The notes: generated by a model from the sequence alone, not told the origin. 64,000 bases of DNA from an uncultured Clostridia bacterium (GCA_945965275.1 CAMFNB010000001.1:25221-89220); one strand, 5' to 3'. Positions 209 to 18,526 are shown, counted from the first letter of the stretch. A program made the numbers and translations.

Positions 209-673
209 ATGCTTATCGAAAAAAGACGAAAAAAAACTGCACCCTCAAAGGTACAGATTCAGTTAATGATATATTTATGTATGTGTTGGAGCTGCGAAGT
301 GTGGGAAAATGACTACTTCAATATTTACTCGTGTTCGCCCCGCACTCTTTTCAGATATATAAAGGAACTCAACGAGGCTCAAACCGTATATCGCTTTCAC
401 CATGAAAAGAAAGCAAAGCTTTTTTATGCGGAGGTTTTGCAGGCACCGTCGGCAGAACCCGCTCAGGATTCACGCCTCGCCCGTCTTCTTAAAATCATCA
501 ATAAATATACAAAAAACAGCTTTTACCTGAATGACAAAAAACCGACCGCACAAAAGGTGCAGTCGGAAATTTTACCGAGCGTAAACATGCGTACTCTTCA
601 GCGTGATCTCAAAGACATAAACAAAGCAATGGATATGCTGTATGAGTATGCCTATGAGAATAATCTGATTTAG
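209..673 (+). CDS. hypothetical protein with two YafY/DeoR-like HTH-like segments (RTLFRYIKEL..., RTLQRDLKDI...)
   Basis: ORF track; short motifs resembling the HTH of YafY/WYL regulators; no clear RBS check possible. Confidence 0.3.
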   Translation: MLIEKRRKKTAPSKVQIQLMIYLCMCWSCEVWENDYFNIYSCSPRTLFRYIKELNEAQTVYRFHHEKKAKLFYAEVLQAPSAEPAQDSRLARLLKIINKYTKNSFYLNDKKPTAQKVQSEILPSVNMRTLQRDLKDINKAMDMLYEYAYENNLI

Positions 674-683
674 TTCTTTTCCT

Positions 684-2006
684 TTATAAAAACATTACAT
701 AATAAATAGGCAGATATACGATTTTGCCGTCTGTTTTGACTGTGCGTCCATTCGATATAACAACAGCCTTCTCTATGTGATAGTCTTCATTTTTTACAAG
801 GTTGCTGAGGGCACTGTGAACCGTATAGTCTTTGCCGGACTTAACCTCAATCGGAACCGCGGACAGACTTTCATAATCATCAATCAAATAGTCAACCTCA
901 CCCTTATTACGATTGTCATAATAGAAAAGCTTATGTCCGTGTGCTGCCAATTCACTTGCCACAACACTTTCATAAACCGATCCGAGATTGATGCTTCTTT
1001 CGTCGTTAATAACCGCACGAATATTATTTCCGTAAAGAATTCCCGTCAGAATTCCGACATCATTAAGATAGAGCTTAAGTAAATTCTTTCCGGCAGACTC
1101 AATTAACGGAAACTTCGGATTTGATATCGCCTGAACATTCAGAGCAATTCCTGCACTGATTAAATATTCAAACTCGTCCCGGTAATCCGTAAATGTCTTT
1201 CCCTTTTTATTCTCTATGCTCTGTGCAATCACTCGTTTTTTCTTATTTTCCATATTTGACGGAATCAAATCATACACACGTCGAATCTTCAGTTTTCGTT
1301 CTGCATCATATTTAGATGCGTCCGCAGCATAATACTCATGAATTTCGTTTTGTATTTCACGCACTCTTTGAATGTTTTTTGTTTCAAAATAAGCATTGAC
1401 TGCATCCGGAAGGCCTCCGACAAGCAGATACTTGCGAAACAAATCCGTCATTTTATTATGTACGGATTCCTCAAGCGCCTCCATGCGCTCAAACTTTTTT
1501 CGCATGGAAGAAATTACAATTTCACTCATGCCGCTTGCGTACAAAAATTCCTCAAAATCAAGCGGATACATTCTGATTTTACGAATGCTTCCCATTGGAA
1601 TGGATGTGGTCTCTGACAATGTAACACCAAGAAGGGACCCGCTTGCAATATATGTGTATTTATTGTCCTGCGAAAGAAATTTCAGAAGCGTAAGAAGATG
1701 CGGATATATCTGAATTTCATCAATGAAAATCAGTGTGTTTTCCCTTTCTTTCATTTTGTCGCCATGAAGCATGCTGACCTGTAGGTAGAAATCTTCAACA
1801 GTGCGTATATCAGCAAAAAGCTTTGAATCGAGTGAATCCTCTACCATATTCAATTCAATAAAATTTGAAAACAGCTTTTTCCCCACGTAGCGAATGATAT
1901 ATGTCTTACCAACCTGACGTGCACCGTCAACAAGAAGAATTTTTTGAGAATCCGATTTTAAGTGATCCTCAATTTGAGCTTCGATTTTCCTGTAAAGCAT
2001 TTTCAA
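684..2006 (-). CDS. AAA+ ATPase of the AAA_14/DUF4143 type (generic ATP-binding protein)
   Basis: Walker A-like LLVDGARQVGKTY near N-terminus, 440 aa, typical stand-alone architecture of this family. Confidence 0.8.
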   Translation of the reverse strand: MKMLYRKIEAQIEDHLKSDSQKILLVDGARQVGKTYIIRYVGKKLFSNFIELNMVEDSLDSKLFADIRTVEDFYLQVSMLHGDKMKERENTLIFIDEIQIYPHLLTLLKFLSQDNKYTYIASGSLLGVTLSETTSIPMGSIRKIRMYPLDFEEFLYASGMSEIVISSMRKKFERMEALEESVHNKMTDLFRKYLLVGGLPDAVNAYFETKNIQRVREIQNEIHEYYAADASKYDAERKLKIRRVYDLIPSNMENKKKRVIAQSIENKKGKTFTDYRDEFEYLISAGIALNVQAISNPKFPLIESAGKNLLKLYLNDVGILTGILYGNNIRAVINDERSINLGSVYESVVASELAAHGHKLFYYDNRNKGEVDYLIDDYESLSAVPIEVKSGKDYTVHSALSNLVKNEDYHIEKAVVISNGRTVKTDGKIVYLPIYYVMFL

Positions 2007-2088
2007 GCCTCCGTTTGACTTTTCAAGTATATTTTACAGCGATTTTTCTGATTTTTCAATACTTTTCAGAAGCAAAAATACTAACTTT

Positions 2089-3423
2089 TCAATATTCTCT
2101 CAGCGGTGCCCTTCCGCTTTTACCGACATTAAACGCTCTTTTTCTCGGGAAGCTGCGGCAGGCAATATTTTCAAATCCTTTGGTAACACTCAAAGCCTCT
2201 TCGTTTCCGTATACAATAAACCAGGGATCGGCGTTGCGACAGTACAGATTTTTAATTGTGAAATCCGTCGCAGTTCCTTCGTGAGTAATAATCAAAACGA
2301 GGGCCCGATCTTTGTTTCTCATATATCTTAAAATCGCGTCGCCGTGGGTTTCGTCTGAATTCTTCTCAATATTATTTATATCAACAATATTGATGTCTGT
2401 GCCGGACACAAAAGCCCTTCTCAAACGATTTACAACAGTTCTTCGAAAATCATCCTTTCCGTCCGTGCAGGCCGGCGGAGCATCAATAATAACCAGCAAA
2501 GAAACAGGGTCGCAGTCATTTTCGCGACTGACTCTTCTCATCACACCGCTGCCGTTATCCTGTCGGCGGATTGTTCTCGAACCGTCTGTCAAATTACTCT
2601 TTATATGATTCCTGATTCTGTTTATCGCAACATTTATGTCACTGCTGTTCGGGCGATACAGCCATTCGCATTCGTCGGTGCTTTTTACCTTGTACCATGT
2701 GCAACTATCGTAGCTGCTCCACTGGTGATTGTCTTCGCTCATCTGAAAATATTCCGGCTCCCTCATATGACCGAAGTATTCCGCAAACTCTTCCCTAAAG
2801 CCTTCAAGTCTCATATCCCTCGGAAAATACTCCAGCCTGCCGCTGTCGCATATAAAGTATCGGGTGTGAAGTGCATTAAGCAAAAGCCTGATATGTTCTC
2901 CCGAAACAAAGCTTCCCCCGAATCCGCCGCCGTATCTTATTCTCGTTACATAGTCCACGTGAATGCTGTTCGGAATAAGGAACTGCGTTGCAAAAGCAGT
3001 ATTCTCCGTTATGATGTAGAAGAAATCGGTCTCCCACTCACCGAATACATTGCTCTGAATTTTAACGCGACTGTAAAATACGTTTCCGAACATATCCTTT
3101 GACGGTAAAAGAATCAACCTCTCATCATAAGGAAGCTTCAGTTCTCCCGCAAGCTCCAGGTTCTCTGCAACAATGGAAGTCCTTTTGTCCTGATGAAGCA
3201 CCGCATTGATGCTTCCGTTTTTCAGAAATCCTTTTACCGCCCAGTCATCACAGTCGGTAAAAACAAAGCAGTCCGGCAGCTGTTTCTCTTCCCATCCCTG
3301 AGTTTTCAAATATTGCGGAGTTAAATAGAGCATCCCGTGAAGATCTGTTCCCGCTGACGGATACCAGCAAATGCTTTTATATGATTTAAGTTGTTCCTGA
3401 AGCTCGTATGAAATATCGTCCAT
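2089..3423 (-). CDS. uncharacterized 444-aa protein (no recognizable family); C-terminal alpha/beta region
   Basis: Long intact ORF downstream of WYL regulator and acidic protein, same strand; no motif recognised by eye. Confidence 0.5.
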   Translation of the reverse strand: MDDISYELQEQLKSYKSICWYPSAGTDLHGMLYLTPQYLKTQGWEEKQLPDCFVFTDCDDWAVKGFLKNGSINAVLHQDKRTSIVAENLELAGELKLPYDERLILLPSKDMFGNVFYSRVKIQSNVFGEWETDFFYIITENTAFATQFLIPNSIHVDYVTRIRYGGGFGGSFVSGEHIRLLLNALHTRYFICDSGRLEYFPRDMRLEGFREEFAEYFGHMREPEYFQMSEDNHQWSSYDSCTWYKVKSTDECEWLYRPNSSDINVAINRIRNHIKSNLTDGSRTIRRQDNGSGVMRRVSRENDCDPVSLLVIIDAPPACTDGKDDFRRTVVNRLRRAFVSGTDINIVDINNIEKNSDETHGDAILRYMRNKDRALVLIITHEGTATDFTIKNLYCRNADPWFIVYGNEEALSVTKGFENIACRSFPRKRAFNVGKSGRAPLREY

Positions 3424-3513
3424 GTGTTTTCTCCTTTAGTTGATATGCATAACATAGCAAAACCCCTGCACCATTTTAGGTACAGGGGCTTTCGAATCAA
3501 TGTGCATCAGTCT

Positions 3514-4017
3514 TTATTTCTCTTCTGCTTCGCATAAGATAAAAGTATCACGATGAATAGGATAATCATCATTGTCAAAGTCTTCGAATTTGAAATACAG
3601 AGGATATTTCTTTTCAGGATTTAAGAAGTTAAACTTCATCTTTTTGTAATATCCGTCTAATATAATTCTGTCTTTATCAGCTTCCGCTTCCGCATATTCG
3701 TCGACATCATTGTCGTAAAATGAGAAAGAGTCAGCATCTTCCAATTCTGAGTCAGGAACAAACAACGCGTCGTTGATGGTCTTTAAAAAGTCATATGCGG
3801 TTATATCGCCCTCTTCATATATTTCGTCCTCGGCTTCGTAGCCTTCGTAAAAGCCTTCCTTATGCGGGAAATATTCCGTTTCTTTTGCATACTTTGTTAT
3901 CTGGTTTCTGAATTCGGAATAAGCTTTCTCTTCAGAATCAAATATAACTGCAGAACGTGTGTCTTCGTTATGCATATTTTCTGGGTTTTCTAATGATTTT
4001 ACCAATACGTATTTCAT
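3514..4017 (-). CDS. highly acidic 167-aa hypothetical protein (D/E/Y/F-rich)
   Basis: ORF 22 nt downstream of WYL regulator gene, same strand; extreme acidic composition (many DE runs). Confidence 0.5.
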   Translation of the reverse strand: MKYVLVKSLENPENMHNEDTRSAVIFDSEEKAYSEFRNQITKYAKETEYFPHKEGFYEGYEAEDEIYEEGDITAYDFLKTINDALFVPDSELEDADSFSFYDNDVDEYAEAEADKDRIILDGYYKKMKFNFLNPEKKYPLYFKFEDFDNDDYPIHRDTFILCEAEEK

Positions 4018-4039
4018 ATTCTTGTCCTTTTAAAATAAA

Positions 4040-5188
4040 CTAATTTTCCTGATCATACGGAACGGCTCTGCCTTCCTTCATATCCTCTTCCGCCTGACGA
4101 ATCATATCCGGCAAGTCCTCATTAAACTGCAGCACATAAGAAAGATAATTTCGGAATTTCTCATTCATCTCCGTCGGTTTGTATATGCATATATACGGAT
4201 AATGCTGAAGTACAAATCTCGCAACCGCATCCTCTGTTGATTTGAATGTTATCTCCAGCGGGTGTGTTGCCATAAGTTGTCTCATAACACCGAGATTAAG
4301 TCCCCCTGTGTAAAACAGCCTGTCTTCGGTGGGAAGCTTCGGTAACTTCTTAATCTTTATGTCCTCTCCGAATTCCTGAATAACGTCATTCAGTTCCTCT
4401 TCCCCGCATACAATGGTGAACTCCTTCGGATTACCGTAAAAATATCCCACCATCATAATTCTGTTTGAAAGACTTGCCCTCGGGTCCTCCATGTCTTTCG
4501 AAATAAGATTTCTCTTTTTCTCGGCATCTGCCTCCTTCTCGATTTTTATATTTCGTATCATGCTTGCTCTGAAACCCTGTGTCTCAAAGTACGTTTTTTC
4601 TTCATCCAGAGCCCGGCCGCCGATCAGGATATAGTCATGGTCTGTCAAAACAAGCTGTATCGGAGTAAGTGTATAATCGGCGCCGTGAACCAGCTTCTTA
4701 TTTACGTCATATTTCATATATTCAAAGCTGATTTGCTTTTTCTCCTCAATCGCTTCGTTGATGATTTCAATGTTATTGAATATGTCTTTGCAGTCTGTCT
4801 TTCTCCAGTCTGCAGGTGTGTGCACATTTTTTGTGCTGGTAAAAAACTTCTTTGTCGAAAGTCCGGCAATCTTCTTCACCAGTTCGTCCGTGTATTTTTT
4901 AGAAATTGATTTATTGGAAATTACGCTGTCCGCAAGCACTCTCAGTTCGCCGTCATCGAAGGTACGCTCTGCAAGCCAACTGCCCTTACTGTCGTTTCTT
5001 ATGTCATATCCGGCTTCTTTGAGCAATGAAAGATTTGCGGAAATTGCTTTTCTTTCAATTTCAATTCCGTACCTGTCAAAAAGAATCTCGGAAAGTTCAC
5101 TCTGCTTTATGTGTCTGTCTGCATCTGATTCTTCTTCCAGAATTCTCAAAATTCTCAGAAGTGCCAGTTTCTTAGGTTCTGCGGGCAT
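4040..5188 (-). CDS. wHTH-WYL domain transcriptional regulator (BrxR/CapW-like architecture)
   Basis: N-terminal HTH (KKLALLRILRILEE...ERKAISANLSLLKEAGYDI) and central WYL-like segment (KQISFEYMKY...YTLTPIQLVLTDHDYILIG). Confidence 0.7.
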   Translation of the reverse strand: MPAEPKKLALLRILRILEEESDADRHIKQSELSEILFDRYGIEIERKAISANLSLLKEAGYDIRNDSKGSWLAERTFDDGELRVLADSVISNKSISKKYTDELVKKIAGLSTKKFFTSTKNVHTPADWRKTDCKDIFNNIEIINEAIEEKKQISFEYMKYDVNKKLVHGADYTLTPIQLVLTDHDYILIGGRALDEEKTYFETQGFRASMIRNIKIEKEADAEKKRNLISKDMEDPRASLSNRIMMVGYFYGNPKEFTIVCGEEELNDVIQEFGEDIKIKKLPKLPTEDRLFYTGGLNLGVMRQLMATHPLEITFKSTEDAVARFVLQHYPYICIYKPTEMNEKFRNYLSYVLQFNEDLPDMIRQAEEDMKEGRAVPYDQEN

Positions 5189-5279
5189 ACGATCAACTCC
5201 TTTTCTTTATTGAACAATAAAGTCCTTATATTGTCAACAAAATAATCAGGATACGCATAGCACGTCCTGCCTGTTTTTA

Positions 5280-6035
5280 TCAGTCCTCTATACCTGCCTG
5301 CAGACCGAAATGCGGAAGACTGTTTATGTCTCTGATAAAAACCACATGACCTGCCTGCGGAATAAAATATGTGTTGAACTCAGGATCATTGATTCCGATA
5401 AAGCAAATCATTTTACCGTCCTTTTCAACTGACTTTTCGTAAAATCCGATTTTAACGGTTATATCTTCATCCTTCACATCTTTCGGGAAATTATAGTATT
5501 TCTCAAACTCTATTTTTTCAATCTCACCGGCAACCACATGGTCCCCTCTTTTAGTCTTCAGACTTTCAAAGTCTTCTTCCATAACAATCTCATTTAAGAA
5601 AGCCGTTACTTTGCATTCACCGACAATGTCCCCGGCCATTCCTTTGTAATTCACAATCGGCGCCTTGAAGAATATTTGACAAACCTCTTCTCCAGCCGGG
5701 CAGCAGCTCTCTTTTACCGCATCTCTGTATTCGCCGCAATGGCGGCATTTCTGCAACATGAATCCGCTCTCACTGATTTCTCTGTTTTTGAATTTCCATT
5801 TGCAGTCCCTTGCAGTCATCCATTCATGTCCGTATATTTCACATTCTCTTTTGATTCGCGCCTTCTTTTGTTCATAAGTTTCATTTACGGTTTCCGGCAC
5901 CGGTTTTTTCTGCGGTCTTGTTACGGCATTCACAACAGCATTTGTCAATGCATTTTCCACGAGACGTGATCCGTCAATTCTTCCGCTCATTGCCTGATTT
6001 TTTAATTCATCCAAAACACTTCCCATGTTTGTCAC
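5280..6035 (-). CDS. uncharacterized Cys-rich protein (possible zinc ribbon CxxxxHEW...CRHCGE...CC)
   Basis: ORF abutting upstream membrane-protein gene (stop/start 6037/6035); multiple Cys/His clusters. Confidence 0.5.
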   Translation of the reverse strand: MTNMGSVLDELKNQAMSGRIDGSRLVENALTNAVVNAVTRPQKKPVPETVNETYEQKKARIKRECEIYGHEWMTARDCKWKFKNREISESGFMLQKCRHCGEYRDAVKESCCPAGEEVCQIFFKAPIVNYKGMAGDIVGECKVTAFLNEIVMEEDFESLKTKRGDHVVAGEIEKIEFEKYYNFPKDVKDEDITVKIGFYEKSVEKDGKMICFIGINDPEFNTYFIPQAGHVVFIRDINSLPHFGLQAGIED

Positions 6036-6036
6036 C

Positions 6037-6921
6037 TCACATAATTTCGTTATTCATAAAACGCTGTTCTGCTTCAAAAAGGTTAAGCGCTTCTTTGAGC
6101 GAATCAGCTCTTCCGTTTTTAAGATACTCTTTAAGTTTCATCACCGTTTCGGTACGTTTGTATTTCTCTGCTATGAAATCCTGCTTCTCCAGTTCTTCCC
6201 CGAGTGCACTTACTGCATCAAGACTGTCGGAAATCATCTTGTCAACAAATGCTATGTTTTCTTTGTACTTTTCGTTGTGCATTGCCTCAATCTCGGCACA
6301 TCTCTTTTCAAATTTTGCATTTGCTTCCTCAAGCTGAGTCGGAAGAGCCCCTGCAATCTTTTTCATTTCTTCTGTGATTGCATTTCTTTTTGTGTTAAGA
6401 GCAGCAATATCCATTTGATATTTTTTTATGTGCTTCGGCAATTCAACTTCGTTGAATTTTTTGGTGTTGTCGAATTGCTTTTTGTCTTCCGTATATCTTC
6501 CGAGCTTCGGATGTGTAACTGCACATATTACAATTACACCTATTGCAAGCACAACTCCCATAAAGCCCAAAAAGACAGCGCTTTGCGTGGCTGCCGCAAT
6601 GAATATAAAAAGAAAAGCCTGTGCTGCCATAATTCCCGCAGCGACATTCCAGCTCTTTATCGACGGGGGCAGCTTCGGTTCCGGGAAATAGAATCTCTGC
6701 GGAAGCGGCGGATTCTTTATGCTGTCAAGCTCGTCCTCAAGCTTTTGGATGCTGTTCTCATATTCCTGTAAAACAATGTCTCTCTCATCATTGTTCGGTG
6801 CATTAAACTTGAGCTGAACGCTTCTGTCTAACGACATATTCAAATTCTGATATGCTTCATCACTTTTTTTACAGATTTCATAAAGACCGTCAAGTTTTTG
6901 TAGCAATTCGTCTTTTTCCAT
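6037..6921 (-). CDS. membrane protein with two central TM helices flanked by coiled-coil regions
   Basis: Hydrophobic stretch AAGIMAAQAFLFIFIAAATQSAVFLGFMGVVLAIGVIVICAV; heptad-rich flanks; 15 nt downstream of WYL paralog. Confidence 0.5.
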   Translation of the reverse strand: MEKDELLQKLDGLYEICKKSDEAYQNLNMSLDRSVQLKFNAPNNDERDIVLQEYENSIQKLEDELDSIKNPPLPQRFYFPEPKLPPSIKSWNVAAGIMAAQAFLFIFIAAATQSAVFLGFMGVVLAIGVIVICAVTHPKLGRYTEDKKQFDNTKKFNEVELPKHIKKYQMDIAALNTKRNAITEEMKKIAGALPTQLEEANAKFEKRCAEIEAMHNEKYKENIAFVDKMISDSLDAVSALGEELEKQDFIAEKYKRTETVMKLKEYLKNGRADSLKEALNLFEAEQRFMNNEIM

Positions 6922-6936
6922 ATTTGTTCTCCTGTT

Positions 6937-8067
6937 TTATTTTTCTTTTTCTTCCGCTTCTTCCACAAGTTCGGGCAAATATGCGTGAAGCTCATAAAGA
7001 AGTCTGATGTCTTCCATTAAATTGTTTTTCAGTTCTTCGGGTTTCATAATGCAGACCAAAGGATACCTTCTGAGCACAAAAGATTTTGCTGCGTATCTTG
7101 TTGCCTTAAAGCTGATTTTAATTGCTGACTCTGCAAGCAGTTCCCTTGAAAGATCCACATTCAGGTCATGCAGTTCAAAAAGCTCTCCCTTCTTATTCAG
7201 GTTTTGAAGCTTTGTAATCTTTATGTCCGTCCCGAAAGCCTCTATGACATCGCCGATTTCCCATGACGGGCAAACGATAGTGATATTTTCAAGTTTATTG
7301 AAAAAGTATGATTCTATCGACGGATGCTCCATTACAAGTTGTCTCGCATCCAAGCCGTCTTTCAGCACATCAACCTGCGACTTGTCAATTGCATTGCGGT
7401 TTTCTTCGGTTGAAATGTCCTGTATGTAACTGAGCTTGAAAATACGGGCCTCATACTCCTTCTTTTTCGTAAGAGAACTCATTGATTCCCTGATTGCAAG
7501 AAGGTAGTAATTCTGCGGAGTCATAATCATCTGCACCGGCGACACAATGTATTCATGCTCCGGCTGAAGCTTTTTATCTACGGTGTATTTCATGTATTTA
7601 AATGAAATCTGCTTTTTCCGTTCTATTGCTTCGCTGATGACTTCTATGTTGAGAAACAGTTCGGGGCTCTCATTCTTTTGCCAGTCAAGTACTGAATGGA
7701 TATGCCGGGTACTCGAATAGAAATTCTTGTTCGCAAGCTTTGCGATTTTTTCCACAAGATCAGCCGTATGCTTTTTTGATATGTACTTACTTGAAAGCAC
7801 ACTGTCTATCAGGAGCCTGAGCTCGGATTTTTCAAAATCACGTGTGACAATGTAGCATCCGGTTCTCGTGGTTTCAATCTCATATCCTGCTTCCTTCAGC
7901 AGAGACAGGTTTGCGGCAATTGCCTTTCTTTCGATTTCGATGCCGTAGTTTTCCTTCAGCTTTTCGGCAATGACCGCCTGCGTAAGCGGACGGTCAATGT
8001 CGCTGTATTCTTTCAGTATCTGCAGTATTCTCAGTAATGCTAATTTTTTGGGTTCTGCTGCTCCCAT
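6937..8067 (-). CDS. wHTH-WYL domain transcriptional regulator, paralog of 4040-5188
   Basis: N-terminus MGAAEPKKLALLRILQILKE...IERKAIAANLSLLKEAGYEI nearly identical in pattern to the other copy; WYL-like KQISFKYMKYTVDKK...YYLLAIRE. Confidence 0.7.
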   Translation of the reverse strand: MGAAEPKKLALLRILQILKEYSDIDRPLTQAVIAEKLKENYGIEIERKAIAANLSLLKEAGYEIETTRTGCYIVTRDFEKSELRLLIDSVLSSKYISKKHTADLVEKIAKLANKNFYSSTRHIHSVLDWQKNESPELFLNIEVISEAIERKKQISFKYMKYTVDKKLQPEHEYIVSPVQMIMTPQNYYLLAIRESMSSLTKKKEYEARIFKLSYIQDISTEENRNAIDKSQVDVLKDGLDARQLVMEHPSIESYFFNKLENITIVCPSWEIGDVIEAFGTDIKITKLQNLNKKGELFELHDLNVDLSRELLAESAIKISFKATRYAAKSFVLRRYPLVCIMKPEELKNNLMEDIRLLYELHAYLPELVEEAEEKEK

Positions 8068-8086
8068 ATTTATCTTGCCCTACTGA

Positions 8087-8290
8087 TTATTTTTTCAGAA
8101 CCTGCCACAGTTCCCACTTGTTGCAGCAATCATAATGACGCATTGACCAGTTTGTCAGCGTGCAGGTTCCTTGTGCCAAGTGTTCAACATCAACTGCTCT
8201 GTTTCCCTGTGATAGTTTTCTCATACCCAGCCAATAGCCACATGTTGAGCACTTTTTATCGCATGAAAAAGTTAATGCCATGTCATCCAA
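8087..8290 (-). CDS. small Cys-rich protein (6 Cys; CDKKCSTCGYW...CTLTNW...CCNKW)
   Basis: 67-aa ORF 19 nt upstream of the WYL paralog, same strand; 9 nt downstream of repeat peptide. Confidence 0.4.
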   Translation of the reverse strand: MDDMALTFSCDKKCSTCGYWLGMRKLSQGNRAVDVEHLAQGTCTLTNWSMRHYDCCNKWELWQVLKK

Positions 8291-8299
8291 CCTCCTTTC

Positions 8300-8545
8300 T
8301 CAGTTGTTTGAATTTAAGTCAATCAACGATGCCGCAGCATCGCCCTTTGCGATAATGCGTCCGTAGAAATCTCTGGTTACATCCATACCGGCCTTGTAAT
8401 CTCCGAGAATCCTTCCGTAAAAATCTTTTACAAGTTTGTCACCGTTCGGCTTCACGATAATTGTTCCCTTGATTCTTCCGTAAAAATCCTTGATTTTAAT
8501 TTCCTGGTCCATTGTAAAATTCTCCTTTATTAATATTTCAGCCAA
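8300..8545 (-). CDS. 81-aa peptide with three tandem KDFYGRI(x)G repeats
   Basis: Internal repeats DFYGRIKG / DFYGRILG / DFYGRIIAKG visible in translation. Confidence 0.4.
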   Translation of the reverse strand: MAEILIKENFTMDQEIKIKDFYGRIKGTIIVKPNGDKLVKDFYGRILGDYKAGMDVTRDFYGRIIAKGDAAASLIDLNSNN

Positions 8546-8777
8546 TTATTGTTATAAATATACTGAATCCGATGTACTGATTTCCGTGCACTGAAAGTTT
8601 TACATCTTCATAAACTGTATATTTCTCAGGCTTACAATGTCAGTTTACGCATCGCCATGTATCATTTTTCGTGCATGGTTAATTTTTTTCGGTAAAAAAC
8701 GACAAAGCCCGTTGCACATCTCTGTACAACGGACTCTGCCGCAATATAATGCAGTATTTCAAAGGCACTGATTGTCG

Positions 8778-9080
8778 TTACTCAAACATCTTTAAGAATT
8801 CTTCTGCCGAAAGCTTTATAAATCCGCTGTGCGATGCCTCTGCTCCCGTCTTTCTGTACGGGTTTGCCGTCATATAATCTTTGAGATCATAGAACGGCAA
8901 TCGCAGCGTGGAATATGTCCCGTAATGCTTGATTTTGTATCCCGATTTATACAGAATCTTTTCAAGCTCTTTCGTATATTTCACTGCGTAGTTTCTGTCG
9001 TATTCTCTTCCGAGTCGCGGCAATACTTTTAACTTTCTTTTTTTGAACGGCTTTGAAAATATTTCTGATAGTATCCGCAT
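8778..9080 (-). CDS. hypothetical basic 100-aa protein
   Basis: ORF only; isolated in an 800-bp mostly non-coding stretch. Confidence 0.3.
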   Translation of the reverse strand: MRILSEIFSKPFKKRKLKVLPRLGREYDRNYAVKYTKELEKILYKSGYKIKHYGTYSTLRLPFYDLKDYMTANPYRKTGAEASHSGFIKLSAEEFLKMFE

Positions 9081-9345
9081 ATAAAAAGACCTCCGTCAGA
9101 TTTTCTAACGAAAGTCTATCATATGTTGTGTGTCAGATTCGGGGCATCATTAATCTTTGACGTTTTTATTGCGCTTTTATCCGACATAATTCTTCCTCTG
9201 TTTTCCCTGGTTTTTCCTGTCACCATAAAAAACCCCGAAAAAACATCATAAATTTATGGTGAAAATCCTGCATTTTTGGTGGTAAAACCCTCTTTTTGCA
9301 CTCTTTTCCCTTGCACACCACGCTTCAGAAATATACAATAATCGC

Positions 9346-10596
9346 ATGCAGAAAAAAATCCAGGCCATAAAAGAATATCTGTCAAAAGATTACCGACTGA
9401 TGTATCGTCCGTCAGGCGGAATACTCAATCATAAATTTCTCACCCCCGGAGCCTGCTACAGCGACTGCCTCTGGGACTGGGACTCATATTTTGCTGATGT
9501 GGCATTAAGACAGATTCTCCTCGAAAACGGCGAAGACACAAAAGAAGCCTCAGAATACGAAAAAGGAGGCATCCTAAACTTCCTTGAACACACCAACGAC
9601 GACGGCTTTATGCCCATAATGATTACCCGCGACATGACAGACGAAGGAATGATTCCGGTAAAATACCCGAACGAGAACATGCACAAGCCCGTAATTGCAC
9701 AGCATGCCGCATTTCTTGTAAAACAGGAAAACGGAAACGCCCACTGGCTTGCTCCGTATTTCGACAAACTTCGCAAATTCATAAACTGTTATTTAACCCG
9801 TCACACCCACATGGCCACAGGCCTTGTGTTCTGGCAAACCGACAATATGATCGGTGTCGATAATGATCCGTGCACATTTTACAGGCCGGACGGTTCATCC
9901 GCATCCATATTTTTAAACTGCCTTATGGTAAAAGAGCTTTCCGCCATGGCATATCTCGCAACCTGTTTAGGACGCGAAGAGGATGCCGCATATTATATAA
10001 AAGAACACGAGCGCCTGGCGACTGCAGTAAGAGAGCACTGCTATGATGAGCGGGACGGATTCTTTTACAGTGTTGATATTAATTTAAGACCGATTGATTC
10101 TTCCGAGTGGCTGCACTCCGGTGCCCCTCGCAACTGGGACTGCCTTATTCAGAGAATTGATTCATGGAGCGGCTTTGCCGCGCTCTGGGCCGGTGTTGCA
10201 ACAAAGGAGCAGGCAGAAAGAATTGCGACAAGGTTCGACGAAGAACAAACTTTCAACTGTGCCGGAGGCATTCGCACGCTTTCAAAACTCGAAAAGATTT
10301 ATCAGGTTGTTGCCTCAGGAAATCCTTCCTGCTGGCTGGGACCTGTCTGGATAATTTCAAACTATCTCACATTCAGGGGCTTACTCTGTTATGGCTTCAC
10401 CGAGCGGGCCCGGGAGCTTTGCGAAAAAACGATTAATCTTCTCGGTGAAGACGTAATCAAGAACGGCTGCATGCACGAGTACTATGATCCGGATACCTGC
10501 GAGCCCGTTATCAATGCCGGTTTCCTCAACTGGAACATGCTTGTTCTCAATATGGCGGCGTGGTATGAGGGCCGCGACTTCATTGAGGAATTCTGA
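9346..10596 (+). CDS. six-hairpin glycoside hydrolase (GH63/GH37 trehalase-like)
   Basis: Motif PGACYSDCLWDWDSYF resembles the trehalase/GH63 signature (PGGRFxExYxWDxY). Confidence 0.5.
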   Translation: MQKKIQAIKEYLSKDYRLMYRPSGGILNHKFLTPGACYSDCLWDWDSYFADVALRQILLENGEDTKEASEYEKGGILNFLEHTNDDGFMPIMITRDMTDEGMIPVKYPNENMHKPVIAQHAAFLVKQENGNAHWLAPYFDKLRKFINCYLTRHTHMATGLVFWQTDNMIGVDNDPCTFYRPDGSSASIFLNCLMVKELSAMAYLATCLGREEDAAYYIKEHERLATAVREHCYDERDGFFYSVDINLRPIDSSEWLHSGAPRNWDCLIQRIDSWSGFAALWAGVATKEQAERIATRFDEEQTFNCAGGIRTLSKLEKIYQVVASGNPSCWLGPVWIISNYLTFRGLLCYGFTERARELCEKTINLLGEDVIKNGCMHEYYDPDTCEPVINAGFLNWNMLVLNMAAWYEGRDFIEEF

Positions 10597-12317: not shown

Positions 12318-12509
12318 TGGAACAAAAACAAGCTGCACCTTTTAAGAGTGCAGCTTGTGAAATTTATGCCATATAAATATCTTTTATTTTTTTTGAGTTT
12401 GTTCTAAAAGTTTCTCATTTAATCTGCCAGAGAACATACAGCATATAAGTCAAGTCCTTTTTTGTGTGTAAATTCATCTTTCAGTTATTAACACTTCTTT
12501 CAACGAGCC

Positions 12510-13223
12510 TTACTCTTCCGTATACTCATGTGGGCGTTCTTTATAATCTTTAACTTTATACTCACCGATGGTATCATATTTGCTTGCTTTGGTTTCGGTT
12601 GGGGTGTCAGTTTCATTATCTTCACCGAGGATTGCATCGAAGAAGATGCGTTCAAGATATTCATATTTAGAATAGATACCTTGGGAAGCCCAAACGAGAG
12701 CGTTACGAACATAGGCGGAATTTGTTTTGAAAAGTTCGTGTTTAACTTCAAAGCCTAATGATTTTGCAAGAAGTACGGCGAACACAATAACCGTTCTTGT
12801 ATTGCCCTCGCGGAAGGGATGCGTCTGCCAAATACTTGCAATAATACGAACAAGTTTGAAAACTATATCCTTATCATTATCGCCGTTTTTTTTGAGTTTA
12901 GCGATTTCTTTCATTGTTTCATTCAGTTGCTTCTTTATTTCTTTAGGATAAGCATAACGAACAGTATCACCGCCAAGAACATCTTCGTATTTAACCATTT
13001 GTATAGTGCGGAATTCTCCTGCCCAATCAAATATTTGGCCAAATATATTTCTATGAATATCGCACAATGTCTCTGTATTGAATTTTTCATATTTTTGCTC
13101 GTAAATCGCAGACATAGCAAGATTAGTTATATCAGCCTCGGCTTTACGAAGCAATTCTGCATCTTTAATTTCGGCTCTGTTTTTTAACACCGAAACATCA
13201 TCATATAAATAAGGATCTCTCAT
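12510..13223 (-). CDS. Fic family protein (short Fic, E. coli Fic-like N-terminus RDPYLY)
   Basis: Fic motif variant HPFREGNTR (canonical HPFx[DE]GNGRxxR); N-terminus MRDPYLYDDVSVLKNR like E. coli Fic. Confidence 0.8.
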   Translation of the reverse strand: MRDPYLYDDVSVLKNRAEIKDAELLRKAEADITNLAMSAIYEQKYEKFNTETLCDIHRNIFGQIFDWAGEFRTIQMVKYEDVLGGDTVRYAYPKEIKKQLNETMKEIAKLKKNGDNDKDIVFKLVRIIASIWQTHPFREGNTRTVIVFAVLLAKSLGFEVKHELFKTNSAYVRNALVWASQGIYSKYEYLERIFFDAILGEDNETDTPTETKASKYDTIGEYKVKDYKERPHEYTEE

Positions 13224-13750
13224 TATCTTATCTCCACAGGAAAGCCATATCTTTTTAAGGTGTTTTCAAACACAGATAAAAATGTCTGTGTTCCATTCTT
13301 CCATGCATCAATTTCCGCACCAGTTTCTTTGCTTACAGGAACTCCTTCTATTGCATTCATTGCATAAGCAAATGACGAACAAGTTTCTTTCTCTTTCAAA
13401 GATAAGGAGTCCATTCCTGAGCTTAGTTTATACATTGTCAGATGACAGTATAAGTTTTTATCAATCAACTTTGCAGCTTGCTCAAGTTGCAATAATCTAT
13501 TTTTTATTTCAGATAATTCTTCAATTATTATTTTTCGCTTTTCGATTTTGTTTAAAATTTCTCCGAGTTCATCGCACCTTAAATACGAACTAACTATCTT
13601 GGCTCCATCGCGTCTTTGGAGATAATACTGTGTATTACCTTTAATTACTTTTTTAGAAATATAGCCAACAGGCAAAGAGAGTATTTCTTCCTCTAATTGT
13701 TGCTTTTTATTGATAAGCATATGATATTCTTTCGCTACTGACATCATCAT
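13223..13750 (-). CDS. Fic-partner protein (Fic_N / antitoxin-like, AIEG helix), translationally coupled to Fic
   Basis: Stop TAA overlaps Fic ATG (TAATG); GGAGG RBS before internal Met (MMMSV...); motif AMNAIEGV resembles the SxAIEGN inhibitory-helix motif. Confidence 0.5.
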   Translation of the reverse strand: MMMSVAKEYHMLINKKQQLEEEILSLPVGYISKKVIKGNTQYYLQRRDGAKIVSSYLRCDELGEILNKIEKRKIIIEELSEIKNRLLQLEQAAKLIDKNLYCHLTMYKLSSGMDSLSLKEKETCSSFAYAMNAIEGVPVSKETGAEIDAWKNGTQTFLSVFENTLKRYGFPVEIR

Positions 13751-14054
13751 ACCTATACCTCCATTTATCATTATTAATATTATATTACCAATTAACCTAC
13801 AAGTCAATATGTTTTAACTGTTCTGTAGGTTATCCAATCTCAGTTAAAATATTCGTCAAAAACAAAAAAACAAATAAAAATATCCGGATTTAGTAATGCA
13901 CTAAACCCGGCCATTTTTAATTAAGCATATATTAATTCTGTATATAACTTTATTTGCACTTAGTTTGATATTATTCTTTCCGCAAACCCATTCCAATTGA
14001 TTTTCTGCCTTGAGTTGTTCGGTGATGCTTTGCTTTTGCTTTTTACCGATAAAA

Positions 14055-15584: not shown

Positions 15585-16478
15585 CTATGACCGTAGTCTC
15601 TTTTGTATTTCACTGACTCGTGCCTCTTCGACAGCAGTCAGCTTGTTCGTATAAGGGCTGTAATCCAAATGGTAATAACTTGTGGTTATTTCATCACCGA
15701 TCTCTTCGTCCGGATAAACCAGCCATCCCTCTAAACACATGTCGGAATTACAGCCGAGTTTTGTGTATTCATCTTTTTCTTCTTTTGTAAGTATCGGTTT
15801 GCCTTTTACGACAAACATGGATTCCTTCATGCCTGCCAGCCAGATAAGATCTCCCGGCTTGTAAGCCGTGGGAAAATCAAACCACATATTCCAAAAGGAT
15901 TCTCTGTAACTTTCAGTATCGCTGTCATATGTGTGGGTGTTTATCAGCCTATTTTCTCTGTCAAATACGAGCTGACCGATTGGCCTTTTATCAGGCTTCA
16001 TCTTATATATCATAAGTTCGTCTTTTTTTCTGTCTTTTTCAAACTCCATTGCTTTTTCAAATGAAGTGAACACACAGCAGCTTGCGGAAGTTGTGTAAAC
16101 ATACTCGGGGTCAAATCGACAAAACTCTTTTATGTCTTCGTTGATGCTTCGCATATATGCCTTCAGAAATTCAAATACCGTTCGCTTTCCTGTCACAGCT
16201 GCAAGCGGAGGCATGACTTCATCAGAAAGAGTATCCATAAGTTCAGCCCAGGCATCAAATCTTTCCTGCAGAGTAAGACCCTGTGCATGCCGAATAAGGT
16301 AAACAGCCTCAAGTGTGCTGAAGTCATAATTCACACAGCTCTCATAGTATGTACGTATATACGGAATGTTGATGTATTTAATTAAACTCTTTTTAAATTC
16401 GGAAATACTTATTGCGTCTTTCATAATAGGTTGCCGGGGACCCCTGATTGGAGGTTGCGGGATCCCCGCCTTTCTCAT
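15585..16478 (-). CDS. hypothetical protein, third gene of AAA+ operon
   Basis: ATG overlaps stop of upstream AAA+ gene (TGATG coupling). Confidence 0.5.
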   Translation of the reverse strand: MRKAGIPQPPIRGPRQPIMKDAISISEFKKSLIKYINIPYIRTYYESCVNYDFSTLEAVYLIRHAQGLTLQERFDAWAELMDTLSDEVMPPLAAVTGKRTVFEFLKAYMRSINEDIKEFCRFDPEYVYTTSASCCVFTSFEKAMEFEKDRKKDELMIYKMKPDKRPIGQLVFDRENRLINTHTYDSDTESYRESFWNMWFDFPTAYKPGDLIWLAGMKESMFVVKGKPILTKEEKDEYTKLGCNSDMCLEGWLVYPDEEIGDEITTSYYHLDYSPYTNKLTAVEEARVSEIQKRLRS

Positions 16479-18496
16479 CAGCAGAAGCCGATGCTCTTTC
16501 TGTTGTTACCGCATCCGATTACCGGTGCTTCAATATCCACCGCACGAATTGTTTTCACATCTTCGTCAGTAACGGAATCGTAATCCATATGAACCAATCT
16601 TGTTGCCTGTGCCAGCTTAGCCTTTTCCAAAATATTACGAACATAACGTCCGTTGCCGAAGTCAGTCTGTGCACGTGCCGCTTCAAAAATTCCTGTGAGT
16701 TTTACACAGGCTTCGTCATCAAGTCTGATTGACTTTTTACCGGCCATAAGCTTTGCAATGTCACAAAGGTCTTTGGCTGTGTAATCCTTGAAAGGAATGT
16801 GGAATGCAATTCTTGAACGAAGGCCCGGATTCTTTTGGAGAAACTGTTCCATCTTGTCAGGGTATCCCGCAAAAATGACAACAACGTCATTTCTGTGATT
16901 TTCCATTTCCTGAACAATGGTGTTGATAGCCTCGTCACCGAATGAACCGCTTCTGTCGTCGACCAGTGAATACGCCTCATCAATGAAAAGAACTCCGCCT
17001 CTGGCTTCCTTGAATTTCTTTTGAATTGTAGGTGCTGTCCATCCGACATATTTGCCTACAAGGTCACCACGGCCCACCTCAACAATGTGACCATACTCGA
17101 GAATCTTGTTCTCTCTCATAATTCTTGCGAAGAGTCTTGCCACGGTTGTCTTTGCAGTTCCCGGATTACCGGTAAAAATCATATGCATTGCGCCTTCTTC
17201 AGTATCAAGTCCTCTGTCAGCAAACATCTTCTTGGCCTTGAAAAAATCAAGTGCCTGGTTGATGACTTTCTTGGCATCCTCGATACCAATCATATTCATA
17301 AGCTCATCATATGCAGAACCCTTTGCCTGTTCTTTTGCAATTGTTTTCTTTGTGCTTTCAACCATCTTGTATTCAGGATAATATTTGTTCTTGATTTTCA
17401 TATCCTGCCAACGGGTGAAAAGACTGACAAGATCGGGACCGTAATAGTCCTTACCCTCTTCCACAGATTCAAATAATTTCTTGTCCGGTTTGATGTTGTT
17501 TTCTTTCGCAAGATATTTAAGATAATCACGTGCCTTCTCTCCGGACGCAGCTTCCTCCGTAATATGCACAAAGCTGATGTTCGAAAGATATTCGTTGAAG
17601 ATTGACTTGAGATTTGTGCAGGCCTTAGGCAGACAGAGAACGGTAAGAACCCTGTTGCGATTCTTATTCATAAAATTTGCAATCATTTCAACTAATTCTC
17701 TTGATGCGTCTGCAGTGTCATCTTCTGAATCTGCATCATAATCAAACCTGAGTACAACAGTACCGCCCGCGTTGCTTTCGTAAACAGCAGCAAGACCCCT
17801 CTGCGGAATGTTATTATCCTCGTTAACATCAATAAACGCATATCTTTTGTTTTCGATTCTGTTGTTCGCGTGGAGTGCTCTTAAGATATTCTTATATGTT
17901 TCTCTGCGACAGTCTCTGTCGTCCGTTTCAATAATGTAGTGTACGGGATGTCCGACAAAATGTCCTTTTCTTTTTACAGAATAGATTCTTTCAATTTCGG
18001 GAAGCAAAGACTGGTTTGTAAAAAGTCTCTGGGCCGCAAGCTGCAAAGATTCCTTCGAATAATCGTCAATAATGTTCTCAGAATAAGGGAAGCGAGGTCC
18101 GAATCTTCTGTTGATAAGAAAGTCAAGATTAAAGAAATTAATGACCTCATCTTCATCGTCTAAGATTTCCATTCTGTTTGCTCTTCTGAGATTTGCTTCA
18201 GTTGCTTCGAGGAGGATCTCATCCTCTGACTCTGCAAGCAATTCAAGTCCGAGTGCTTTTACATACGAATGAAAAAGCTTCTCCGGTGAAATCTTTGAAC
18301 GAATAATTGCAGTAAACTGTGCTTCGTTATGCTTTGCACCTGTGAGACAGATAAAATCATCAGGCTTGAGTCTGTTATTAAACTCTGCAGTAATATCCGC
18401 AATATCGTGACAGTAAATTCTGAAAGCTTCTCTGTCGTTGTATCTTTTATCCCACTCTTCATTTTTTATAACAGCATTAAATTCAAATAATTTCAT
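16478..18496 (-). CDS. SpoVK/CbxX-CfxQ-type AAA+ ATPase with ~400-aa N-terminal extension of unknown function
   Basis: C-terminal half aligns by eye with B. subtilis SpoVK (FTGNPGTAKTTVARL...GGVLFIDEAYSL...GYPDKMEQFL...GLRSRI...ANGRYVRNI). Confidence 0.8.
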   Translation of the reverse strand: MKLFEFNAVIKNEEWDKRYNDREAFRIYCHDIADITAEFNNRLKPDDFICLTGAKHNEAQFTAIIRSKISPEKLFHSYVKALGLELLAESEDEILLEATEANLRRANRMEILDDEDEVINFFNLDFLINRRFGPRFPYSENIIDDYSKESLQLAAQRLFTNQSLLPEIERIYSVKRKGHFVGHPVHYIIETDDRDCRRETYKNILRALHANNRIENKRYAFIDVNEDNNIPQRGLAAVYESNAGGTVVLRFDYDADSEDDTADASRELVEMIANFMNKNRNRVLTVLCLPKACTNLKSIFNEYLSNISFVHITEEAASGEKARDYLKYLAKENNIKPDKKLFESVEEGKDYYGPDLVSLFTRWQDMKIKNKYYPEYKMVESTKKTIAKEQAKGSAYDELMNMIGIEDAKKVINQALDFFKAKKMFADRGLDTEEGAMHMIFTGNPGTAKTTVARLFARIMRENKILEYGHIVEVGRGDLVGKYVGWTAPTIQKKFKEARGGVLFIDEAYSLVDDRSGSFGDEAINTIVQEMENHRNDVVVIFAGYPDKMEQFLQKNPGLRSRIAFHIPFKDYTAKDLCDIAKLMAGKKSIRLDDEACVKLTGIFEAARAQTDFGNGRYVRNILEKAKLAQATRLVHMDYDSVTDEDVKTIRAVDIEAPVIGCGNNRKSIGFC

Positions 18497-18526
18497 ATAG
18501 TCTTACCTTTCTGTAAAAACTCAGTT

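Follow-up and report, generated by a model that had tools for sequence, protein, structure and literature searches.

A WYL regulator and its neighbours in a gut Clostridia bacterium probably occupy a strain-variable hotspot of independent cassettes rather than one operon

WYL-domain transcription regulators have been described in two settings that are relevant to the locus studied here. BrxR and CapW are wHTH-WYL-WCX proteins that repress defence islands, BREX and CBASS among them (PMC9122601, PMC9122589, PMC11662680). Their structures are available (7T8K and 7TB6, PMC11662680), their RWHVR motif holds two arginines that contact ssDNA (PMC11662680), and 97% of BrxR proteins sensu stricto come from Proteobacteria (PMC9122601). 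DriD and PafBC, on the other hand, are ssDNA-sensing WYL-domain activators of transcription (PMC9186387, PMC10853764), and DriD governs a small effector gene, didA (PMC9186387). An earlier note on a 64-kb stretch of DNA from an uncultured Clostridia bacterium (hereafter the window) had suggested that a regulator of this kind, here WYL1, heads an undescribed WYL-controlled system whose cargo would be a 167-aa acidic protein and a 444-aa protein. Our analysis favours another reading, to which we give a probability of roughly 0.6: the locus would be a strain-variable, defence-island-like hotspot of cassettes that are independently gained, lost or exchanged in this Clostridia-type gut bacterium, and not one operon.

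ORF calling found the three genes exactly where the note had placed them, all on the minus strand (Table 1). WYL1 was said to lie immediately upstream of both cargo genes. This is accurate for the 167-aa gene, which follows the WYL1 stop codon after 22 nt, but not for the 444-aa gene, which is separated from the 167-aa gene by 90 nt with a predicted terminator inside. In an Rfam scan of the window, a tRNA-Ser (34819-34909) was the sole match.

Table 1. Features of the WYL1 locus and its surroundings, in window coordinates.
Feature	Position	Strand	Basis or remark
AAA_14+DUF4143 ATPase (PADLOC PDC-S01)	684-2006	minus	PADLOC/Pfam profiles
444-aa gene (DUF7663)	2089-3423	minus	ORF call
444-aa protein, C-terminal region, residues 251-444	2089-2673	minus	lineage-specific, hypervariable
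N-terminal DUF7663 domain of the 444-aa protein, residues 1-250	2674-3423	minus	
Predicted intrinsic terminator closing the WYL1-167 unit	3459-3492	minus	hairpin prediction and RNA fold
167-aa acidic protein gene	3514-4017	minus	ORF call
WYL1, 382-aa wHTH-WYL-WCX-type transcription regulator, opens two-gene unit	4040-5188	minus	ORF call and PADLOC/Pfam profiles
Promoter-like region and candidate operator upstream of WYL1	5205-5237	minus	sequence reading
Second paralogous WYL cassette (WYL2)	5280-8545	minus	ORF calls and profiles
WYL2 cassette: 251-aa Cys-rich protein	5280-6035	minus	
WYL2 cassette: 294-aa transmembrane/coiled-coil protein	6037-6921	minus	
WYL2 regulator	6937-8067	minus	Pfam WYL
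WYL2 cassette: 67-aa Cys-rich protein	8087-8290	minus	
WYL2 cassette: 81-aa protein, DFYGRI repeats	8300-8545	minus	
Terminator-like hairpin after 100-aa gene (8778-9080)	8699-8742	minus	hairpin prediction

That the head gene encodes a WYL regulator could be confirmed, and a wHTH-WYL type is supported. WYL1 matched the PADLOC WYL profile at 3e-13; with Pfam WYL (PF13280) it scored 20.7 bits, slightly below the cut-off of 21.8. Along its whole length it shares 45% identity with WYL2, which passes the same profile at 31.4 bits. Pfam matches to HTH domains were weak and restricted to WYL2 (HTH_12, 0.007; HTH_11, 0.064), and WYL1 itself gave no Pfam WCX match at E <= 0.1. More than 798 homologues of WYL1 were found, mostly of about 325 aa with PF13280 and PF25583; among the homologues listed, PF13280 is present in nearly all and PF25583 (WCX) in many. 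WYL1 is about 55 residues longer than these typical relatives, the N-terminal 90 residues are the best-conserved segment of the family alignment, and pN/pS measured against the L148 haplotype (see below) is 0.11. Judged by these matches, WYL1 is a member of a large Clostridia wHTH-WYL-WCX family.

When the PDB was searched with the WYL1-family profile, the WYL-WCX region of DriD was matched at E ~1e-4 (7u02, 7tzv, 8tp8), with an alignment running through the WCX region, and PafC at 3e-3, whereas BrxR and CapW were returned at E <= 1 neither by phmmer with WYL1 nor by hmmsearch with the family profile. By profile, WYL1 thus appears closer to DriD/PafC than to BrxR/CapW. When placed through the family consensus and its DriD alignment, the position equivalent to RWHVR reads HDYIL in WYL1 and QNYYL in WYL2, against QRYYL for the consensus of the family. 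WYL1 nevertheless resembles BrxR and CapW in its predicted architecture (N-terminal winged HTH, central WYL, C-terminal extension), in being encoded by the first gene of a small same-strand unit, in the palindrome at its own promoter-like region, which is a candidate operator, and in having homologues that adjoin varied defence genes in mosaic islands. It differs from them not only by the missing RWHVR motif and the missing match to their solved chains, but also by its clostridial rather than proteobacterial family and by a cargo that consists of one ORFan and no recognised defence system. With DriD and PafBC, the nearest solved-structure relatives of the family by profile, WYL1 shares a WYL motif of the YYL/NYL type and, with DriD, the small size of the gene that it may govern; however, the similarity is remote, the N-terminal region is unmatched, and those proteins serve chromosomal DNA-damage regulons while the cassettes described here are variable.

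The genomic surroundings of WYL1 homologues bore out the association of WYL regulators with defence that the note had taken from the literature. Same-strand neighbours, taken from 77 gut and rumen metagenome loci (110 non-redundant neighbours), were diverse and defence-rich: they included 15 GmrSD_N, about 10 IetA-like AAA, 6 Peptidase_M41, 4 PDDEXK_4 and 3 nSTAND3 proteins and 1 LlaJI. AddAB-type helicase-nuclease genes adjoin the closest long homologues of WYL1. This last arrangement would suit a different explanation, in which the WYL cassettes are DNA-damage or stress modules of the DriD/PafBC type, the ssDNA-bound WYL protein activating small stress effectors and anti-phage defence playing no part. 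The profile matches to DriD and PafC rather than to BrxR/CapW, the absence of the RWHVR motif and the control of didA by DriD point the same way. We consider it unlikely all the same: many homologues stand in operon-like arrays with GmrSD, IetA-like, PD-(D/E)XK, nSTAND and restriction genes, and a hotspot that varies by presence and absence and carries PADLOC candidates would be unusual for core stress regulons. A phage origin was also considered and rejected, a single WYL-family match being found in 2.9 million viral contigs.

The reading that we prefer, of separate cassettes, starts from the signals around the WYL1 gene. Upstream of it lie TTGACA (5232-5237) and TTCAAT (5209-5214), separated by a spacer of 17 nt, and this promoter-like region is partly kept in L148. 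A perfect 8+8 palindrome, CTTTATTG-TT-CAATAAAG (5205-5222), overlaps the -10-like hexamer and may be the WYL1 operator. Its core, TTATTGNNCAATAA, has a single perfect match in the 64 kb; a shared WYL operator ahead of the 444-aa gene was rejected on this ground, relaxed matches being at chance level. At the other end of the unit, the predicted terminator, which lies 36 nt before the start codon of the 444-aa gene, consists of a 14-bp stem with a loop of 6 nt, followed by UUUU. It folds at -30.2 kcal/mol (z = -4.3), and its stem is unchanged in L148, where substitutions are confined to the loop. Its U-tract, UUUUG, is short and may let some transcripts run on into the 444-aa gene. For this gene, a search for a promoter of its own turned up nothing convincing: the sole candidate, a 9/12 consensus match, lies in the terminator loop and is of a kind expected by chance at that frequency. 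Further on, no terminator was predicted between the 444-aa gene and the ATPase gene, and the next terminator-like site (542-566) lies downstream of the ATPase.

The WYL1 unit carries a single cargo gene, that of the 167-aa protein. This protein is strongly acidic, as the note had stated (pI 4.26; 45 D+E versus 19 K+R). It had no match in Pfam, PADLOC or the PDB and nothing meaningful in NCBIfam or PHROGs; tblastn found no counterpart among phage or plasmid records, and a search of 5.8 billion proteins returned only copies that are 98-100% identical, all within the species-level cluster. By these searches the protein appears to be an ORFan. An acidic partner is not a recurring theme of WYL regulators, since of 43 neighbours that lie downstream of WYL homologues none has a pI below 4.6. 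Our best guess, held with low confidence, is that the 167-aa protein is a nucleic-acid-mimic or inhibitor-type effector made on induction. In this bicistronic module, with its own promoter-like sequence, palindrome and strong predicted terminator, WYL1 would most likely bind the palindrome as a dimer and autoregulate. By analogy with the ssDNA sensing of CapW (PMC11662680) and DriD (PMC9186387, PMC10853764), a nucleic-acid signal such as ssDNA, received at the WYL domain, could then alter expression of the 167-aa protein, through repression or activation.

The 444-aa protein turned out to have a family. Residues 10-193 scored 114.3 bits (E 8e-33) with Pfam DUF7663 (PF24699), whose cut-off is 27, and the protein has every invariant residue of the family (Y21, D57, N141, WYPSAGxD and RYGGGFGG). 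Given also the large family of WYL1, the view that none of the three proteins resembles a family can no longer be held. A literature search found no paper on DUF7663; NCBIfam and PHROGs gave nothing meaningful for the 444-aa protein or for WYL1, and tblastn with the 444-aa protein was likewise negative for phage and plasmid records. Most DUF7663 proteins stand alone and are 250-280 aa long, whereas the 444-aa protein adds a C-terminal region of about 190 residues, so that one lineage of the family bears a hypervariable C-terminal domain. This region is basic (pI 9.06), is modelled by AF2 with low confidence and has no homologues outside the species cluster. Compared with the L148 allele, identity is about 93% over residues 1-250 and falls to 24-44% over residues ~251-400, except for 68% in 276-300. 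Residues ~265-400 are hypervariable and specific to this lineage, and the C-terminal domain may be an exchangeable module for specificity or effector function.

Structural comparison of the cargo, proposed in the note by way of AlphaFold and Foldseek, did not lead to an assignment at the level of significance: the 444-aa model had no match in the PDB or BFVD at E <= 0.001, and the AF2 single-sequence model of the 167-aa protein was unusable (pLDDT 44.5). Sequence searches of the PDB were likewise without significant result, whether the query was the 444-aa protein, the DUF7663 profile or a two-sequence profile of the C-terminal region. The model of the N-terminal domain tentatively suggests a class I methyltransferase-like Rossmann fold, which would be the first fold assignment for DUF7663. 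Set against the class I SAM-dependent methyltransferases Trm1, RsmD-like HI0767, RlmI and m4(2)C synthase, the conserved DUF7663 motifs would fall at the positions of motif I (the loop that follows strand 1), motif II (the acidic residue with which strand 2 ends) and motif IV (behind strand 4). There are differences: motif I reads SAGxD in place of GxGxG, (D/N)PP(Y/F) is absent, the Foldseek comparison with the PDB is not significant, and 0 of 93 DUF7663 family members match methyltransferase Pfam families, even at E 0.1.

Comparison between strains showed how the genes of the locus come and go; all cassette comparisons fall inside one species-level cluster and thus have little evolutionary depth. 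The window matches the related loci L001 and L002 at about 99% over 535-3423 and 8778-9155. Between these segments a block of 5354 bp (3424-8777), holding WYL1, the 167-aa gene and the WYL2 cassette, is absent from L001 and L002, where 25 bp with a ribosome-binding site stand in its place and the 444-aa gene, 99% identical, lies 25 nt behind another gene. A further 22 contigs were grouped with L001 and L002 by look-up. Because the 444-aa gene is kept at 99% in strains without WYL1, it does not depend on WYL1. A third locus, L004, lacks only the ATPase gene. L148 lacks the ATPase as well and keeps the order WYL1'-167'-terminator-447aa. All three genes are thus carried side by side by two haplotypes that have diverged, that of the window and that of L148. 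The divergence between the two is mosaic: pS is 0.35 for WYL1, 0.31 for the 444-aa N-terminal domain and 0.056 for the 167-aa gene, and the similar values for WYL1 and the N-terminal domain indicate that these have been linked for some time.

Conserved co-occurrence of the three genes across genomes, a check that the earlier note had named, was not found. We examined the genes within 6 kb of 47 DUF7663 loci from many phyla: a WYL-family ORF was present at one of them, as a weak match, and homologues of the 167-aa protein or of other window proteins at none. No family was seen more than twice among the 131 flanking proteins, and DUF7663 genes have no recurrent partner among the 47 loci. WYL1, the 167-aa gene and the 444-aa gene might still be one WYL-controlled defence operon, the hairpin being read through and WYL1 keeping a toxic cargo repressed until the cell is infected. 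There is a precedent in BrxR and CapW (PMC9122601, PMC11662680), members of the WYL family often lie beside defence genes, and the adjacency of the three genes on one strand, their presence in both haplotypes and the similar synonymous divergence of WYL1 and the 444-aa N-terminal domain are all in keeping with it. But a strong and conserved predicted terminator splits the 167-aa gene from the 444-aa gene, the latter is kept in L001 and L002, with which 22 further contigs were grouped, although WYL1 and the 167-aa gene are both missing there, no copy of the candidate operator lies near it, the 167-aa protein is an ORFan, and WYL genes are next to absent around DUF7663. We regard the single operon as quite improbable, and the trio that the note had proposed is not borne out as one WYL-controlled system. 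Taken together, the terminator, the presence and absence in strains and the cross-phylum neighbourhoods split the apparent WYL-headed trio into independent cassettes; a shared strand and adjacency in a defence-island-like region are insufficient to define a system.

The ATPase that the note had placed just downstream is indeed of the DUF4143 type, and matches PADLOC PDC-S01 (PDLC04792) end to end (6.3e-180, residues 3-440 to model positions 1-433 of 452). To our knowledge, PDC systems exist only as computational candidates. The ATPase, whose gene is deleted in L004 and missing from L148, is an independently variable neighbour of the trio and not a member of it. A restriction-modification-like pair, in which DUF7663 would protect self and the ATPase attack foreign DNA, was rejected as highly improbable. 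In its favour, the genes are same-strand neighbours at a distance of 82-88 nt, no terminator is predicted in the gap, and both are present in the window and L001 types; the tentative methyltransferase-like fold and a D...EVK pattern in the ATPase C-terminus (the likeness to PD-(D/E)XK nucleases is our own reading) could be accommodated as well. But the DUF7663 gene occurs without the ATPase in L004 and L148, an ATPase homologue lies near 0 of the 47 DUF7663 loci, and PADLOC models PDC-S01 as a single-gene candidate.

On the reading of independent cassettes, the region would comprise the WYL1-167 module as a first unit, a solitary DUF7663 gene, independent of WYL1, as a second, and the PDC-S01 ATPase, also variably present, as a third. 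A defence role of every component is suggested by association only. A bolder version, which we hold to be distinctly unlikely in its full extent, would see in WYL1-167 a new kind of two-gene module, where a nucleic-acid-sensing WYL protein switches on one highly acidic and aromatic-rich protein that works as a DNA or nucleic-acid mimic, an inhibitor-type defence effector or a counter-defence effector, and in DUF7663 an undescribed stand-alone island gene with a methyltransferase-like core and a swapping C-terminal specificity domain.

The PADLOC scan that the note had advised gave a divided answer: the neighbourhood contains the candidates PDC-S01 and PDC-S04, while the 444-aa and 167-aa proteins matched 0 families at E <= 0.1. 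In L001 a PDC-S09-type gene is inserted. Indels also affect 9156-9198 and 12329-14017, and one allele has been swapped for another at 8745-9076. The hotspot lies between a GH63-like gene (9346-10596) and an SLFN_AlbA_2 gene. A transposon-type insertion of the 5.35-kb block was rejected, as no terminal inverted repeats were found and no target-site duplication was seen at the junctions; a terminator-like hairpin lies just inside its upstream end (Table 1). The WYL2 cassette, which the note had overlooked, sits directly upstream of the trio, and its regulator heads a cargo of the 294-aa and 251-aa proteins. The cargo of both tandem WYL cassettes is without an assigned family, and new accessory or defence functions may be sought in them.

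The three open reading frames of the proposed WYL-controlled system, their coordinates and their shared minus strand agree exactly with an earlier note on this DNA, the observations of which were partly confirmed. The 382-aa protein (WYL1) is a WYL regulator, as proposed (PADLOC WYL, 3e-13; Pfam WYL, 20.7 bits, just under the cut-off of 21.8 bits). The 167-aa protein is strongly acidic (pI 4.26; 45 D+E vs 19 K+R) and a DUF4143 ATPase does lie downstream; it matches PADLOC PDC-S01, a single-gene candidate, at 6e-180. Two claims of absent families were refuted: the 444-aa protein carries Pfam DUF7663 (PF24699) over residues 10-193 (E 8e-33), and WYL1 belongs to a family of more than 798 members, mostly of ~325 aa, with PF13280 and PF25583.

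Features of the locus and its surroundings, in window positions
Feature	Position	Strand	Remark
Predicted terminator	542-566		3' of ATPase gene
ATPase gene	684-2006	minus	AAA_14 and DUF4143
DUF7663 gene, 444 aa	2089-3423	minus	ORF
Terminator-like hairpin	3459-3492		14-bp stem and UUUU tail; between 167-aa and 444-aa genes
Acidic protein gene, 167 aa	3514-4017	minus	ORF
WYL1 regulator, 382 aa	4040-5188	minus	ORF
Palindrome	5205-5222		overlaps -10-like hexamer upstream of WYL1
Second WYL cassette	5280-8545	minus	directly upstream of WYL1 unit
WYL2 (paralogue of WYL1)	6937-8067	minus	in second cassette
Small ORF, 67 aa	8087-8290	minus	6 cysteines; head of variable block
Small ORF, 81 aa	8300-8545	minus	three (K/R)DFYGRI repeats; head of variable block
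Fic-like protein, 237 aa	12510-13223	minus	PADLOC PDC-S04 3e-51; weaker SoFic match
tRNA-Ser (anticodon TGA)	34819-34909	minus	sole Rfam/ARAGORN match in window

WYL1 and the 167-aa gene are spaced by 22 nt. The hairpin (folding energy -30.2 kcal/mol; z = -4.3 vs shuffles) lies in the 90 nt that separate the stop codon of the 167-aa gene from the start codon of the 444-aa gene. 5' of WYL1, the sequence reads TTGACA, a 17-nt spacer and TTCAAT, and the -10-like hexamer is overlapped by a perfect 8+8 palindrome, CTTTATTG-TT-CAATAAAG. The palindrome core has a single perfect copy in the 64-kb window, where relaxed matches were at chance level and no copy was found near the 444-aa gene. Given the terminator at its end and the promoter-like region with a unique palindrome at its start, the WYL1-167 pair thus appears to form a closed transcription unit of two genes.

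The WYL1 family comes from sources labelled Clostridia, Oscillospiraceae or Acutalibacteraceae, and we sampled its neighbourhoods in 80 metagenome loci (gut, rumen) and one viral contig. Same-strand neighbours were often found on both sides, thus a WYL1 homologue does not always head its unit. After removal of redundancy, 110 same-strand neighbours remained, in 76 families (58 of them singletons), and defence-type domains were frequent: GmrSD_N (15), AAA (14 by Pfam, ~10 IetA-like by PADLOC), Peptidase_M41 (6), PDDEXK_4 (4), nSTAND3 (3), DUF2779 (2) and LlaJI (1). These neighbourhoods support, in general terms, an association of the WYL1 family with variable, defence-like cargo, as likewise described for BrxR (PMC9122601). 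That the module serves DNA damage or stress and not defence appears unlikely. A comparably acidic gene was found downstream of none of 43 other WYL homologues. The closest long homologues lie beside LRR_5 and AddAB-type genes, or within a mobile element. At four loci (L062, L064, L065 and L091), homologues of 383-405 aa are divergent from the gene of a small LRR_5 (BspA-type) protein and adjoin AddA/AddB-type helicase-nuclease genes.

Among PDB chains, the WYL1-family profile matched DriD (7u02, 7tzv, 8tp8; E ~1e-4) and PafC (3e-3), and no BrxR/CapW chain at E <= 1. CapW/BrxR repressors are defined by an RWHVR motif with two ssDNA-contacting arginines (PMC11662680); HDYIL takes its place in WYL1 and QNYYL in WYL2. 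BrxR homologues are 97% proteobacterial (PMC9122601). The profile matches, the replaced motif and the proteobacterial spread of BrxR set the WYL1 family apart from BrxR and CapW.

The partners of WYL1 differ greatly in their distribution. Among 5.8 billion proteins, the 167-aa protein has only copies 98-100% identical to itself, and nothing was found in Pfam, NCBIfam, PHROGs, PADLOC, PDB, phage records or plasmid records; by these searches it is an ORFan. For the 444-aa protein, a search of 1.84 billion cluster representatives gave 287 relatives, mostly stand-alone proteins of 250-280 aa. All align to residues ~8-250 only, and the C-terminal region has no relatives in the same set. We then scanned one genome per species and 6 kb around each DUF7663 gene. 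The 47 loci found are scattered across many phyla (Firmicutes, Bacteroidota, Verrucomicrobiota, Spirochaetota, Myxococcota, Planctomycetota and others). A WYL-family ORF lay within 6 kb at one of them (weak, 1.3e-7, opposite strand), and homologues of the 167-aa, 251-aa, 294-aa and 100-aa proteins or of the ATPase at none. Co-occurrence of the trio is therefore not conserved across genomes, an outcome that the earlier note itself named as a refutation. Its interpretation is supported in part: of the WYL-controlled three-gene system that it put forward, the regulator and the island context stand, the trio as one system does not.

DUF7663 flanks are housekeeping genes mixed with scattered restriction, RmuC, IetA and IS66 genes, and no Pfam/PADLOC family occurred more than twice among 131 flanking proteins. 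In seven loci (L020, L029, L032, L033, L035, L048 and L061), mostly labelled Bacteroidota or Ignavibacteria, an SNF2 helicase (948 aa) and a 609-aa protein precede the DUF7663 gene on the same strand, and three small conserved unassigned ORFs follow it. This order probably reflects common ancestry, because the rest of those neighbourhoods is housekeeping.

An AlphaFold2 model of the 444-aa protein, built on a 10-sequence alignment, was usable over residues 1-250 (pLDDT mostly 70-90) and poor beyond. The family has invariant Y21, D57 and N141 and conserved WYPSAGxD, PDxFxxTD, ENxxF and RYGGGFGG motifs, which, going by the predicted secondary structure, would fall at methyltransferase motif I, II and IV positions. 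Much speaks against such a fold: Foldseek returned nothing significant against PDB and viral structures, a 93-sequence profile had no match in PDB, and none of the 93 members matched methyltransferase Pfam families, even at E 0.1. The label methyltransferase-like is thus a tentative one for this fold, and we do not class the protein as a methyltransferase. Its C-terminal region is basic (pI 9.06) and hypervariable, and could be an exchangeable specificity or effector domain.

Exact-sequence look-ups in metagenome assemblies recovered three haplotypes of the locus. H1, the window type (L003-L011), has the full arrangement; one member, L004, shows a clean deletion of the ATPase alone. H3 (L001/L002, with 22 further contigs grouped by look-up) aligns to window 535-3423 and 8778-9155 at ~99%. 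The 5354 bp between (3424-8777), which include the 167-aa gene and the two WYL genes with their entire cargo, are swapped for 25 bp bearing a ribosome-binding site, so that the 100-aa gene is immediately followed by the 444-aa gene (98.9% identical). H2 (L148/L147) retains WYL1' (92% aa identity) and 167' (98%). Its terminator is the same, with all substitutions in the loop; its DUF7663 protein has 447 aa, and the ATPase is absent. The data thus show WYL1-167 to be a terminator-bounded pair from which the DUF7663 gene and the ATPase can each be separated, as they can from one another. With a terminator between its genes and H3 carrying only the third, a read-through operon of the whole trio is quite improbable. 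That the DUF7663 protein and the ATPase, between whose genes no terminator was predicted, form a restriction-modification-like pair is very improbable, the ATPase being lost alone in L004.

Between H1 and H2, divergence is mosaic: pS is 0.35 for WYL1, 0.31 for the 444-aa N-domain (residues 1-250) and 0.056 for the 167-aa gene. Since pN/pS is ~0.1 in all three, they behave as real coding genes. The low synonymous divergence of the 167-aa gene (3514-4017 vs L148 1320-1823), far below that of its flanking genes (0.31-0.35), suggests recent between-haplotype exchange of this segment alone. In the DUF7663 protein, residues 1-250 are ~93% identical and residues 251-400 24-44%, except 68% in bin 276-300. 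The sharp boundary to the C-terminal region (which spans window 2089-2673 vs L148 2665-3255) suggests domain replacement or diversifying selection.

We propose that a WYL1 dimer would bind the palindrome in its own promoter, and that ssDNA or a similar signal on the WYL domain would alter transcription of WYL1 and the acidic gene, as with CapW (PMC11662680) and DriD (PMC9186387, PMC10853764). The acidic, aromatic-rich 167-aa protein would be the sole output of this switch; with low confidence, it may be a nucleic-acid mimic or inhibitor. The DUF7663 protein would act alone, combining a conserved catalytic-like core with a fast-changing C-terminal module. WYL-regulator cassettes in mosaic islands are already known, and this one is a modest, uncharacterised addition; new here are the tentative fold assignment of DUF7663 and the hypervariable domain in one of its lineages.

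The earlier note described a single WYL regulator; WYL1 is there, and the paralogue WYL2 (45% identity, full length) was overlooked. Two small ORFs precede WYL2, neither with a family match, and a 294-aa then a 251-aa protein follow. The former has central transmembrane helices between coiled coils and a weak, probably compositional PADLOC LeoBC match (2e-6); the latter is Cys-rich, with no family match.

Exchange also affects the flanks. At window 9156-9198, L001 carries an 819-bp insert (8779-9597) encoding a 162-aa NTP_transf_2/Polbeta nucleotidyltransferase (PADLOC PDC-S09, 2e-14), and it lacks window 12329-14017 (1.7 kb), the segment with the Fic-like PDC-S04 gene. Window 8745-9076 is an allelic replacement in L003 (3255-3574): a 100-aa basic protein in the window and L001 vs an unrelated 98-aa protein in L003-type contigs. 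The locus is a hotspot of cassettes exchangeable independently of each other, and the whole region a mosaic hotspot. The tRNA-Ser, ~26 kb away, has no obvious relation to it. Within its DUF4143 region, the ATPase has GEVDYLID...PIEVKSGK, a D...E-x-K pattern reminiscent of PD-(D/E)XK nucleases. Further along, 15585-20700 encodes a 672-aa AAA protein (weak IetA match; its L001 counterpart is listed with AAA and AAA_lid_6 in public gene calls), a 297-aa protein and a 506-aa protein (DUF2779 per public gene calls); AAA_lid_6 and DUF2779 recur beside WYL1 homologues at other loci.
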